A DNA stretch of 11,395 nt from a virus (lineage: Duplodnaviria; Heunggongvirae; Uroviricota; Caudoviricetes), in the IMG/VR virus record IMGVR_UViG_2585427777_000024, positions 1 through 11,395 of that record; one strand, written 5' to 3'. A model generated the notes under the pieces. That model made no database searches. It worked only from the letters and a program-made list of their open reading frames with translations, and was not told the DNA's origin. The translations under genes were made by a program, and so were the position numbers. Shown piece by piece: positions 1,532-11,395 of the stretch. Each line of letters starts with the position of its first letter. Positions within the stretch are counted from its first letter, which is position 1.

Positions 1532-1741
1532 TTAATTTGAATACAATGCAATTCTCGAGGACTGAAGTTTCTCGCAATTAAAATTTATCAGTTTTACTTT
1601 CTGCTCTCTGGAAACGCCTGCTTCTTTTTTACCTGAGAGCATTTTTTCGCATTCTGATTTCGTTAGTTTAGATTTTGAATATCTTGTCCAGTTAGTAGGA
1701 GTGCCACCTTCCTTTTCAATAGTGGCGGTAATTTTATACAT
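1532..1741 (-). CDS. ydaC: Small prophage protein YdaC-like, 69 aa
   Basis: Start chosen at the ATG preceded by GGAGGTG with a 5-nt spacer; this ATG overlaps the ralR stop (ATGTATAA). The longest ORF (93 aa, to 1813) would overlap ralR extensively. Confidence 0.65.
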   Translation of the reverse strand: MYKITATIEKEGGTPTNWTRYSKSKLTKSECEKMLSGKKEAGVSREQKVKLINFNCEKLQSSRIALYSN

Positions 1742-1928
1742 GAACACCTCCATTATTATTTCCAGTGGTTCGTTTATTCCATCTTTCGAGTGCTTCTTTT
1801 TCACTTCCACCATAACCGGTTCGGGATTCGCATCCGTTACACTTCGCTCGGTAATATCCTGAAATGGCTTTCACCGTTACTGATGGACAACCACAAAATG
1901 GACATGGTTTAACATTGTCATATCTCAT
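1734..1928 (-). CDS. ralR: RalR/Lar restriction-alleviation protein and type I toxin (DNase), 64 aa
   Basis: Translation MRYDNVKPCPFCGCPSVTVKAISGYYRAKCNGCESRTGYGGSEKEALERWNKRTTGNNNGGVHV matches recalled Rac Lar/RalR, including Cys-rich zinc-ribbon-like motifs. In-frame upstream ATGs give 68- or 77-aa alternatives. Confidence 0.85.
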   Translation of the reverse strand: MRYDNVKPCPFCGCPSVTVKAISGYYRAKCNGCESRTGYGGSEKEALERWNKRTTGNNNGGVHV

Positions 1929-9659: not shown

Positions 9660-10622
9660 ATGAAAAATATTGCGACAGGCGACGTTCTTGAACGTATCCG
9701 CAGACTGGCCCCGTCACATGTAACCGCGCCATTCAAGACGGTAGCGGAGTGGCGCGAGTGGCAACTTTCCGAAGGCCAGAAACGTTGTGAGGAGATCAAC
9801 CGTCAGAATCGTCAGTTGCGGGTGGAAAAAATTCTGAATCGCTCTGGCATCCAGCCATTGCACCGCAAATGCTCGTTTTCGAATTACCAGGTGCAGAACG
9901 AAGCGCAGCGATACGCGTTGAGTCAGGCGAAATCCATCGCTGATGAACTGATGACCGGGTGTACAAATTTTGCGTTCAGCGGAAAACCTGGTACCGGGAA
10001 GAACCACTTAGCGGCAGCTACTCGCGGCCTTAATAAGAAAAACTCTAAGCCGACAATAATCAATAAAGATTACAGTGTAGATACACTACTATCAGAGCTA
10101 TTTTTGAATGGCGCACACATGGAGCAACCCAACGTACACAACGTTTCTGAGGGAAACATGAAGTTCTATGATGAATGCCATGCTGGATTAATCAGACCAA
10201 TACCCGCTCCAATAGGCGCGTCATACGATGAAGAGATCACAATTAATTCTCCAGATTGGCAAAAGCTCGCGTGTGTAGCTTTACGCCGCTATCAGTCGAA
10301 GGAATGTCATGACGGAATGCAATGGGATACAACCGATCATGGTTGGACTGATGTAATCGCGTATCCATTCGTCGAAGAAATACAATCAATGGATAATAGT
10401 GGTTATCGACAATGTTTAGTTGGGCTGGTCACAATAAACAATTCAAATGCAAATTCTCCGTACCTATCTACCGTTTGGATACATCCATTTTATCGCAGGA
10501 GAGGGTTATTAAGTAAGTTATGGCCAAAATTACAAGAGTTATATGGAAGTAACTTCGAAATTGAGCGACCTAATGAAAATATGAAAGCATTTCTGAAAAG
10601 TGCGAAACACGCAGATTACTAA
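9660..10622 (+). CDS. Chimeric ORF, 320 aa: N-terminal ~120 aa of a DnaC/IstB-like helicase loader (YdaV) through the P-loop GKPGTGKN-HLAAA, fused in frame to ~200 aa of unrelated AT-rich sequence
   Basis: N-terminus MKNIATGDVLERIRRLAPSH... recalled as Rac YdaV. After HLAAA (about 10017-10022) the protein has no Walker B or sensor motifs. Hand-counted 60-bp samples give ~52% GC before the junction and ~37% after. Confidence 0.7.
   Translation: MKNIATGDVLERIRRLAPSHVTAPFKTVAEWREWQLSEGQKRCEEINRQNRQLRVEKILNRSGIQPLHRKCSFSNYQVQNEAQRYALSQAKSIADELMTGCTNFAFSGKPGTGKNHLAAATRGLNKKNSKPTIINKDYSVDTLLSELFLNGAHMEQPNVHNVSEGNMKFYDECHAGLIRPIPAPIGASYDEEITINSPDWQKLACVALRRYQSKECHDGMQWDTTDHGWTDVIAYPFVEEIQSMDNSGYRQCLVGLVTINNSNANSPYLSTVWIHPFYRRRGLLSKLWPKLQELYGSNFEIERPNENMKAFLKSAKHADY
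10158..10622 (+). CDS. Possible independent gene inside the chimeric ORF: 154-aa GNAT-like acetyltransferase candidate
   Basis: Internal ATG at 10158 preceded by GAGGGAAAC. Motif YLSTVWIHPFYRRRGLLSKL resembles GNAT motif A (beta4-alpha3, R-x-x-G-x-G/A-like), but the region after the motif is shorter than typical. Assignment is by eye only. Confidence 0.35.
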   Translation: MKFYDECHAGLIRPIPAPIGASYDEEITINSPDWQKLACVALRRYQSKECHDGMQWDTTDHGWTDVIAYPFVEEIQSMDNSGYRQCLVGLVTINNSNANSPYLSTVWIHPFYRRRGLLSKLWPKLQELYGSNFEIERPNENMKAFLKSAKHADY

Positions 10623-10733
10623 TTTATGAATCAGTCTGTGGAGTTAGAGTTGGTGTGAACAAGTAGGGTAAGAGCCTCAACGTGATGCTATGCCGACCTG
10701 CTCCCTGAGAATTCACACAGAAGGCTGCTAGCA

Positions 10734-11024
10734 ATGTCTGCAGATCGCTCAAAGCGGACTAGAAGGTTAGCTTGCGTCGGACTTGGCGTATTTAAAGAAG
10801 TGCTGGTGGTGACTGGTTGTTGTGTTCCATTTCTACAGAACAAAATCACAGAAACTATACCCAATAGTTGTATCTCATCAATGATGAGACAGCCTCATAT
10901 TTATCAGGACTGGTGTACGTCCAATACAGGAGGTTGTCGTGCTGGTTCTCAAATGTGCGCTGGCTATTGCAGCTGTAATGGCAATTTATTGTCTTGCTGT
11001 TGTTCTTATGGATCGCTTTTCTGA
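10734..11024 (+). CDS. Hypothetical 96-aa ORF with a Cys/Gly/Ser-rich C-terminus (12 Cys)
   Basis: The only long open frame in 10623-11035 (open from 10686). Weak SD. The Cys-rich tail overlaps a better-supported +1-frame hydrophobic peptide and has T-rich first codon positions, so at least the 3' part may be non-coding. Confidence 0.25.
   Translation: MSADRSKRTRRLACVGLGVFKEVLVVTGCCVPFLQNKITETIPNSCISSMMRQPHIYQDWCTSNTGGCRAGSQMCAGYCSCNGNLLSCCCSYGSLF
10873..10889. promoter_or_regulatory. 17-bp perfect palindrome TCTCATCA-A-TGATGAGA
   Basis: Seen directly. It lies ~40 bp upstream of the AGGAGG SD at 10928-10933. The 1-nt centre argues for a dimeric protein-binding site rather than an RNA hairpin. 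Confidence 0.4.
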
Positions 11025-11028
11025 TTGA
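10939..11028 (+). CDS. Candidate 29-aa hydrophobic (single-TM-like) peptide, GTG start: (M)LVLKCALAIAAVMAIYCLAVVLMDRFSD
   Basis: Consensus SD AGGAGG (10928-10933), 5-nt spacer, GTG at 10939. First codon positions are G-rich (13 of 29), unlike the overlapping frame. It ends 8 bp before the hok promoter -35. Confidence 0.35.
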   Translation: MLVLKCALAIAAVMAIYCLAVVLMDRFSD

Positions 11029-11035
11029 TTTTATA

Positions 11036-11064
11036 TTGGCGAGGTAACGGGAGTTAAGTAGAAT
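11036..11064 (+). promoter_or_regulatory. Candidate hok/mok mRNA promoter: -35 TTGGCG, 17-bp spacer, -10 TAGAAT
   Basis: Hexamers at 11036-11041 and 11059-11064. The predicted start (~11071) precedes GCTTGAGGCT, which resembles the 5' end of plasmid R1 hok mRNA as recalled. Confidence 0.4.
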
Positions 11065-11124
11065 GGCTGCGGGTGCTTGAGGCTATCTGTCTCAGGCATG
11101 AACACCAAAGGCAGATAGAGAAAA

Positions 11125-11226
11125 GCCCCAGTTAACATTACGCGTCCTGCAAGACGCTTAACATTAATCTGAGGCTCAATCTATGAACGGCAAATCTAGG
11201 TTAGCCTCTTACGTGCCGAAAGGCAA
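11125..11226 (-). ncRNA. Candidate Sok-like antisense RNA with its promoter (-35 TTGCCT at 11226-11221, -10 TAACCT at 11203-11198), antisense to the mok translation-initiation region
   Basis: Inferred from hok/sok architecture and weak promoter hexamers with 17-nt spacing. The RNA 3' end was not located, and no clear terminator was found. Confidence 0.3.
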
Positions 11227-11395
11227 GGAGAAGCAGGCTATGAAGCAGCAAAAGGCGATGTTAATCGCCCTGATCGTCATCTGTTTAACCGTCATAGTGA
11301 CGGCACTGGTAACGAGGAAAGACCTCTGCGAGGTACGAATCCGAACCGGCCAGACGGAGGTCGCTGTCTTCACAGCTTACGAACCTGAGGAGTAA
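11183..11395 (+). CDS. Mok-like reading frame, 70 aa, in-frame N-terminal extension of Hok
   Basis: ATG at 11183 preceded by GAGGCT with an 8-nt spacer. The 70-aa frame is co-terminal with hok. Confidence 0.5.
   Translation: MNGKSRLASYVPKGKEKQAMKQQKAMLIALIVICLTVIVTALVTRKDLCEVRIRTGQTEVAVFTAYEPEE
11240..11395 (+). CDS. hokD: Hok/Gef-family type I toxin, 51 aa, sequence of HokD (RelF)
   Basis: MKQQKAMLIALIVICLTVIVTALVTRKDLCEVRIRTGQTEVAVFTAYEPEE matches recalled HokD/RelF. AAGGAG lies 9 nt upstream. The window ends at its stop codon. Confidence 0.9.
   Translation: MKQQKAMLIALIVICLTVIVTALVTRKDLCEVRIRTGQTEVAVFTAYEPEE

Follow-up and report, generated by a model that had tools for sequence, protein, structure and literature searches.

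Positions 10623-11035 of an 11,395-nucleotide (nt) stretch of viral DNA, which we refer to in its entirety as the window, form a region of about 410 bp in an Escherichia coli prophage of Rac type, bounded upstream by a truncated replication-gene fusion and downstream by a hok/sok toxin locus. The best overall explanation of this region, to which we assign a probability of roughly 0.8, is that it contains a single genuine gene, the GTG-initiated 29-codon open reading frame (ORF) at 10939-11028, which specifies an uncharacterized microprotein with a proposed role as a membrane modulator, and that the 96- and 10-codon ORFs of the same region are not genes. The reading frame, the purifying selection acting on it, the conservation of its translation start and its linkage to hok are established here. 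The ORF and its ribosome binding site are as follows:

10939-11028, plus strand: 29-codon ORF with its TGA; GTG start; single-helix hydrophobic microprotein (M)LVLKCALAIAAVMAIYCLAVVLMDRFSD
10928-10933, plus strand: Shine-Dalgarno (SD) sequence AGGAGG, read directly in the sequence, 5 nt 5' of the GTG

The first-pass annotation of the window had picked out this ORF by its AGGAGG element, 5-nt spacer and GTG codon, all of which are present (the spacer reads TTGTC, the GTG lies at 10939 and the TGA at 11026-11028), and had favored its frame on account of G-rich first codon positions; G indeed occupies 13 of the 29 first positions as against 3 second and 6 third positions. Its description of the product as small membrane protein-like also fits a peptide of 29 residues with one uninterrupted hydrophobic stretch. 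The consensus of the family to which the peptide belongs has a grand average of hydropathy (GRAVY) of about 1.9, again with a single unbroken hydrophobic stretch, and by size (<60 aa) and hydrophobicity the product classifies as a small hydrophobic peptide predicted to be membrane-directed. What makes the ORF a microprotein gene is the combination of a conserved reading frame, start and SD, selection in that frame only, and a published translation signal.

Relatives of the region were collected in four ways: by the 96-aa frame, by the 29-aa frame, by DNA, and by an exact 19-mer that corresponds to the 5' end of the hok mRNA and carries no information on the upstream frames. The loci anchored on DNA or on hok constitute a frame-independent sample. 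The 29-codon ORF is intact in all 270 loci that cover it, many of these copies not being independent and most relatives being >90% identical, and in 26 of the 26 loci of the frame-independent sample. The 30 nucleotide haplotypes contain 35 distinct point variants, 18 of them synonymous and 17 non-synonymous in this frame, where the expected synonymous fraction is 0.26 (P=0.0013); the synonymous excess is confined to the 29-codon frame. More distant comparisons give the same picture. Among six divergent family members, 14 of 15 pairs have ratios of non-synonymous to synonymous differences (pN/pS) of 0.26-0.58, and the variable columns distribute over the three codon positions as 18/8/22. Relative to the copy on Shigella flexneri plasmid pWR100 there are 9 synonymous and 7 non-synonymous sites, with a synonymous divergence (dS) of 0.62 and a ratio of non-synonymous to synonymous divergence (dN/dS) of 0.20; relative to a 34-aa homologue, class C, dN/dS is 0.23. 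The start codon is GTG or ATG at the same position (ATG in pWR100), changes in N-terminal length involve whole codons, and the SD is kept in every lineage examined, as AGGAGG, GGGGG, GGGAGG or GGAG. The 29-residue peptide is therefore under moderate purifying selection. The first-pass annotation had named the pattern of synonymous and non-synonymous changes as a way to discriminate between the overlapping frames; the substitutions respect the 29-codon frame and not the 96-codon frame, and the earlier lean toward the former holds.

The two ORFs that we discount are

10734-11024, plus strand: 96-codon ATG ORF; not considered a gene; the 29-codon ORF, read out of frame, makes up its 3' third
10626-10658, plus strand: 10-codon ORF MNQSVELELV; probably open by chance

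Of the 242 loci that cover the 96-codon frame, 195 keep it open, and it is called in some GenBank annotations. It had been described as open far longer than expected by chance, which is true only in a mild sense: 2.35% of 2000 dinucleotide-preserving shuffles of 10623-11035 produce an ORF of 96 codons or more in one frame or another, and ORFs of 90 aa or longer number 21 in the window, many lying in frames that are non-coding. Two companion observations were accurate, namely that the remaining frames of the stretch are interrupted by stops and that the Cys/Gly/Ser-rich tail of the 96-aa frame is what the codons of the hydrophobic peptide yield when read out of frame. In the stretch common to both ORFs the 96-codon frame accumulates 4 synonymous as against 28 non-synonymous changes. 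A stop or frameshift interrupts it in 38 of the 242 loci and a 12-nt deletion affects 9 more, making 47 in all; in the frame-independent sample it is altered in 9 of 20 loci. Over the upstream two thirds of the 96-codon ORF, none of the six frames has a synonymous excess; the spacer at 10745-10927 contains six distinct variants that introduce stops into the 96-aa frame, and deletions are found in 12 of 47 haplotypes. This upstream part is missing altogether in the BL21, HannyBb, L322, L373 and L374 contexts, and pWR100 has no counterpart of the ORF. The versions found in databases range from 55 to 152 aa, are restricted to Escherichia and share no Pfam domain, and no SD precedes the ATG at 10734. 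As for the 10-codon ORF, its ATG was correctly placed relative to the upstream gene, beginning at the fourth base after the TAA. It has no SD upstream, and the commonest variant (29 loci) converts its stop from TGA to TCA and carries an E-to-G change; the DNA in question is present only in loci with the same upstream gene. Minus-strand ORFs of 42 and 58 aa were also considered and dropped, as they show no significant synonymous excess and stop-creating variants occur in them.

The existence of the gene is already on record and is not a discovery of the present study. The Prokaryotic Genome Annotation Pipeline (PGAP) calls the ORF in strain Ec40743 as WP_000960667.1, a hypothetical protein reading VLVLKCALAIVAVMAIYCLAIILMDRLSD, which differs from the window peptide at 4 of 29 positions; a BL21 entry, VLVLKCTLAIVAVMAIYCLVIVLMDHLSD, differs at 6 of 29, and both copies lie directly 5' of hokD. 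A protein-database search with a 46-aa extended translation of the 29-mer as query found several 29-aa entries in nr, named "hypothetical protein" or "membrane protein", one of them occurring on 650 contigs. The ORF lacks a PGAP annotation in almost every E. coli genome. The BL21(DE3) orthologue (NC_012971.2, 1591437-1591524, minus strand) appears in Table S4 of "The Cryptic Bacterial Microproteome" by Fesenko et al. (PMC11188072), itself a re-analysis, from which the profiling values are taken as published: a retapamulin translation initiation site (TIS) count of 13 by Ribo-RET and a ribosome-protected fragment (RPF) count of 38. The same source includes the orthologue in its "Entero67K" coding set, as part of cluster Escherichia_98807 (size 389, dN/dS 0.46). 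Ribosome profiling was another test proposed in the first-pass annotation; according to this literature the 29-codon ORF is translated at low level in BL21. A literature search for the peptide found nothing in main texts, and the ORF is missing from the Sakai ribosome-profiling supplement (PMC5597208).

The RefSeq protein, the nr entries and cluster Escherichia_98807 all represent the same gene: 29 aa, the same start, approximately 80-97% identity and the same slot 5' of hok. The region was therefore not strictly "unassigned", in that RefSeq holds the peptide as a hypothetical protein and the microproteome catalogue lists it; neither assigns it a name, a function or a family. These records give no hok linkage, promoter motif, copy on the virulence plasmid pINV or resolution of the frames. 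Added here are the resolution of the frame conflict, the definition of a family and of its narrow range, the hok linkage, a candidate promoter together with its loss in the window allele, and the pINV copy.

Of 5426 complete E. coli genomes, 1985, or roughly a third, contain DNA resembling 10623-11035, and only 203 cover at least 80% of it. In most of the genomes homology begins near 10745, at a recombination junction, and continues into hok; almost all matches are without an annotated feature. No match was found in Pfam, NCBIfam, PHROGs or PADLOC for the 29-aa product, the 96-aa product or the 58-aa product of the minus strand. An exhaustive profile search against 1.84 billion representatives returned only 17 clusters at E<=0.001, all of them short Escherichia-type peptides. 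They include the divergent MLAALKGFVAILAVVAIYCLVVVLMDRLSD and MLIIKGVLAIVIVVAIYCLVVTLWERLSD as well as class C, the 34-aa homologue MSDDISLAMEGALAV(I/V)AVVGVYCLVVFLMDRLGN, which is 50% identical to class A (E=2e-9); a tblastn search with the latter against phage records found no match. Members share an Ala-rich helix, an invariant I/V-Y-C-L motif and the tail L-M-D/E-R/H-L-S/G-D/N, and the core may be written roughly as K-x-x-L-A-I-x-x-V-x-x-I-Y-C-L-x-x-x-L-M-D/E-R/H-L/I/F-S/G/F-D/N/E. As judged from the sequences retrieved, this is a microprotein family limited to Escherichia/Shigella. Three contigs with this prophage DNA (L084, L086 and L087) are binned as Collinsella, "Candidatus Scatousia" and Haemophilus; such labels outside Escherichia/Shigella, which come from metagenome-assembled genomes in the genome-contig scan, most likely denote mis-binned short contigs rather than true hosts.

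A copy of the gene resides on the virulence plasmids of Shigella and enteroinvasive E. coli (EIEC). The pWR100 version, MLVLKGTLAIAAVMTIYCLIVVLMERFSD, begins with ATG and lies at 2501-2590 of contig L088, which corresponds to 90911-90997 of NZ_CP037924.1. Only a stub of the hok leader follows it, and the start codon of icsP is some 290 bp further on. In the 80-90% band, 137 plasmid records match at about 82.8% over the full length, the ORF being annotated in none of them. The region upstream of icsP is usually treated as non-coding regulatory DNA, yet it holds an ATG-started gene.

The chromosomal setting is the early-right (replication/nin) part of lambdoid-like or Rac-type prophages, directly 5' of the hok promoter. 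Two features define the downstream side:

11036-11064, plus strand: hok promoter; -35 TTGGCG, 17-nt spacer, -10 TAGAAT; begins 8 nt after the small-ORF stop
11071-11395, plus strand: hok/mok/sok type I toxin-antitoxin locus; mok at 11183-11395, hok at 11240-11395

The hok/sok leader at 11071-11245 matches Rfam family RF01794 with 110 bits, and the last ORF of the window is Mok/Hok (Pfam HOK_GEF, PF01848, E=3e-23). E. coli LR-28 contains DNA identical to that of the window, in which PGAP names the toxin gene hokD and places no feature between it and the upstream hypothetical gene; UTI89 is annotated likewise. Among 160 loci sampled by the peptide, hok lies 3' of the ORF in 151. The toxin gene is likewise found 3' of P0064, P0065 and class C, which are divergent members, in upstream contexts as different as lambda-P/DUF977/ORF6N (L373), a divergent higBA (L374) and DUF551 with a second small ORF (class C). 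L374 carries the same hok promoter as the window, and in neither is there a terminator between the small ORF and that promoter. Considered as a possible moron, the gene has a promoter-like motif that is kept in relatives, with the -35 mutated in the window, and no terminator before the hok promoter.

The slot 5' of hok has other occupants. An apparently unrelated 27-aa transmembrane ORF, class B (MTWPEAFTTVGIAMAVALVVYSICRWG or MNWPEAFAITGVAMAIAFLVYVICRWG), preceded by a GGAGG SD and often coupled through ATGA to a DUF551 gene, fills it in 22 of 115 hok-anchored prophage contigs and stands in tandem with class C in 6 more; PGAP leaves it unannotated. Class B sits about 41 nt before the hok transcript start in L254, L270 and L265, and between -300 and -216 in L266, L296, L309 and L311. 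Elsewhere (L253 and 18 others; L256, L305 and L328) a multi-helix hydrophobic protein of 72 aa or 108 aa (phrog_3772) ends before the hok promoter. In all, a short membrane-protein ORF ends <100 nt 5' of the hok start in 70 of the 115 contigs. Two observations hint at a functional link: adjacency to hok persists across 50% divergence, and other tiny transmembrane ORFs fill the same position.

Recombinants recur at this boundary. In 10 of the 115 contigs (among them L257, L261, L267, L332 and L325) the last seven or so codons of the ORF (…MD(R/H)LSD*) are fused to unrelated upstream DNA; recombination has thus repeatedly joined DNA within the gene, close to position 11006 of the window, and the A-type hok promoter moves together with the 3' end of the ORF. 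A 22-nt perfect palindrome, CGATATGGGAATTCCCATATCG, is found just 5' of the hok promoter, at approximately -70 to -45 from the hok start (L296, L266, L275 and L312); several kinds of cassette have it, whether or not the class C ORF is present. As neither strand shows a T-run after it, the palindrome does not obviously qualify as a terminator, and it could represent a protein-binding site or a recombination hotspot.

Upstream of the gene, three features are relevant to its expression:

10745-10927, plus strand: non-coding spacer/leader; no frame on either strand with synonymous excess; homology start at about 10745
10896-10901, plus strand: candidate -10 CATATT of a sigma-70 promoter for the small ORF; predicted transcript start at about 10908
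10873-10878, plus strand: candidate -35 position; TCTCAT in the window versus TTGAAT/TTGAAG in most relatives

Some 190 nt upstream of the 29-codon ORF are thus a non-coding spacer. Alignment of the A-major, A2, HannyBb, L097/L098, pWR100 and L374 lineages reveals that CATATT is invariant in 9 of 9 representative lineages, mostly 43 nt 5' of the start codon (42-50 nt in pWR100 and a few others), and that it lies exactly 17 nt 3' of TTGA(A/G)(T/G), the spacer sequences in between being unrelated from one lineage to another. From the fixed hexamers at fixed spacing over a free spacer we infer a sigma-70 promoter signature, and a dedicated weak promoter with a start at about 10908 would thus serve the gene in most lineages. 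The TCTCAT allele, which LR-28 also has, is present in 44 of 271 loci; UTI89 is among the strains with TTGAAT. In the window, and in this allele only, 10873-10889 form a perfect inverted repeat, TCTCATCA-A-TGATGAGA, where most relatives read TTGAATCA; three adjacent substitutions at 10874-10876 complete the repeat and abolish the candidate -35, a cluster that looks like a quasi-palindrome (template-switch) correction. Expression probably relies on the gene's own promoter in many prophages and on operon read-through in others, likely including the window. A resemblance between spacer and hok leader, both of which contain AGGTTAGC, raised the idea that the spacer is a degenerate duplicate of hok; this was discarded, the best local alignment scoring below the shuffle mean, and no significant complementarity or similarity between the spacer and the hok/sok leader was found.

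As to function, one could picture the following course of events. The gene would be transcribed from its weak sigma-70 promoter (TTGAAx, 17 nt, CATATT) or by read-through of the upstream early operon and, there being no terminator, the transcript would run on into hok. The peptide, to judge from its hydrophobicity, would insert into the inner membrane as a single-helix protein, where helix-helix packing might make it a small modulator of another membrane protein, the obvious candidates being Hok, a lysis protein or a transport protein. Such a role has precedents in the small inner-membrane regulators of E. coli, KdpF (29 aa), AcrZ, MgtS, PmrR and CydX, which are chromosomally encoded, act in complexes with known partners, and were found through conservation and ribosome profiling. 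The peptide is of their size class and shares with them a strong SD and a single transmembrane helix rich in small residues, here predicted; unlike them, it is borne on prophages and plasmids and has no significant family match. A further comparison can be made with small prophage proteins that act on membrane proteins of the host, such as DicB of Qin (PMC6832061). The peptide, too, is small, is specified by the early region of a cryptic lambdoid E. coli prophage and plausibly acts on membrane targets. DicB differs in being soluble, with 62 aa and a defined mechanism, and the two have no homology.

Several observations weigh against this interpretation. To the non-independence of many intact copies must be added the low ribosome-profiling counts in BL21. 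The peptide matches no family in Pfam, NCBIfam, PHROGs or PADLOC, and its relatives likewise give no significant family match. Class A has K5 beside the helix and class C has D3, D4 and E10, a difference in flanking charge that leaves no basis for calling membrane orientation. The promoter motif agrees with the consensus at 8 of 12 positions and is missed by a standard consensus scan; its -35 is destroyed in the very allele of the window, and the motif is absent in BL21 and L373, where the ORF directly follows a co-oriented gene. Linkage to hok has its exceptions too: one lineage, which includes a Shigella chromosome, has the ORF without hok, and the 115 hok-anchored contigs comprise 20 with an intact ORF and 10 with its last codons only, the rest carrying other cassettes, which shows the gene to be dispensable. 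Finally, the hok link may reflect mere physical proximity, as tight linkage is an equally good explanation of the adjacency in phage genomes, which are mosaic.

The alternative that survives best, though an unlikely one, is that the 29-aa peptide is the toxin of an unrecognized type I pair, a membrane-depolarizing peptide whose translation would be restrained by a small RNA (sRNA), antisense or divergent, or by a fold that sequesters the SD, and forms a second module beside hok. The first-pass annotation had called the peptide type I toxin-like, and it does share traits with Hok/Gef, TisB, ZorO, Ibs and ShoB: these toxins too are short, hydrophobic single-helix proteins with a short polar tail, carried on mobile elements. 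A bona fide type I system, hok, adjoins the gene, and RalR/RalA is also present in the window. Furthermore, a 9-bp helix (10888-10896 with 10930-10938) may hide the SD in the window allele, and the minus strand has promoter-like sites at 11057-11028 and 10881-10854. However, the peptide falls outside the toxin families in the four collections searched and bears no similarity to Hok. It gives no PF01848 match at E<=1 and no BLASTP alignment with the adjacent Hok at E<=100, and it lacks the periplasmic, Cys-containing C-terminal domain that follows the N-terminal transmembrane helix in the Hok/Gef proteins, which are about 50 aa long; kinship with Hok was rejected on these grounds, the "CL" common to both helices not being significant. 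Nor were an antitoxin RNA and a conserved translational lock found. No Rfam family matches the stretch at E<=10, neither minus-strand site is paired with a terminator to bound an antisense unit, and fold z-scores of -0.2 to -0.6 for 10745-10945 and 10890-11070, on both strands, are ordinary, those of the upstream spacer being -0.2 and -0.4; a structured RNA or sRNA in these intervals was rejected accordingly. As a conserved lock the anti-SD helix fails as well, with 6 compatible as against 7 disruptive substitutions, a fold z-score of -0.6 and absence from BL21, HannyBb, L322 and L374. The DNA that would hold the 11057-11028 promoter is replaced in the lineage without hok, yet the ORF persists there, and the initiation signal in BL21 comes from normally growing cells (PMC11188072). 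The toxin label found no support in these analyses, and a modulator is favored: no regulatory hallmark expected of a free-standing type I toxin was found, and initiation occurs in growing cells.

A second possibility, similarly doubtful, is that the microprotein is a functional third partner of prophage hok/sok loci, a transmembrane peptide that would pair with Hok in the membrane as a modulator, immunity factor or co-toxin and tuning, for example, prophage release. The attraction of this proposal is that it would explain why members at 50% identity all lie directly 5' of hok, and why the same slot is taken in other prophages by tiny transmembrane ORFs of no relation to it, namely the 27-aa class B and the 72-aa and 108-aa membrane proteins. 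The hokW-sokW locus has been reported to aid release of prophage Sp5, and the paper makes no mention of an upstream ORF (PMC8621323).

It is very unlikely that what is conserved is a DNA or RNA element, either an upstream part of the hok promoter or regulatory region or an sRNA in 10745-10938, with the ORF being incidental. The ORF does end 8 nt before the hok -35, its last 20 nt or so travel with the hok cassette in recombinants, and the spacer is about as conserved as the ORF (approximately 0.42 distinct variants per nt in each). Against this stand the protein signatures (codon-position pattern, synonymous excess, SD, GTG/ATG switch and whole-codon indels), the ribosome initiation signal published for the BL21 orthologue, the lack of any structured-RNA signal in Rfam or in the fold z-scores, and the fact that hok loci work with wholly different upstream DNA, including that of PMC8621323. 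Least credible of all is that the 96-aa ORF is a real product, whether alone or as one of an overlapping pair with the 29-aa ORF, a proposal that the comparative data given above already contradict.

With the 29-codon ORF as the gene, an ambiguous gap of about 410 bp is replaced by a single small gene that usually goes unannotated or is mis-called as the 96-aa frame. The gene is otherwise an ordinary, neglected prophage microprotein, and the gain lies in resolution and context. Its steady position beside hok provides a lead on tiny membrane peptides that might modulate Hok-type toxins or prophage release.

Across the remainder of the window, Pfam matches comprise an integrase, RalR (DUF1187), RecT, RecE/ExoVIII, SieB, a helix-turn-helix (HTH) repressor, YdaT and a DUF1376 (YdaU-like) replication protein. 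RalR (DUF1187; 1532-1813, minus strand) forms a type I pair with the RalA antitoxin sRNA (1557-1735, plus strand, by Rfam match), which brings to two, RalRA and hok/sok, the known type I systems in the window. The 320-aa ORF at 9660-10622, immediately upstream of the region studied, is a deletion fusion with its junction near 10019/10020. The match to DnaC-like helicase loaders (NCBIfam PRK12377, PHROG 50) covers residues 1-126; that to a 333-aa phage protein (phrog_16994; weak GNAT match) covers residues 120-320 and involves the C-terminal two thirds of the phage protein. By comparison with E. coli LR-28, about 2.37 kb are absent at the fusion junction.

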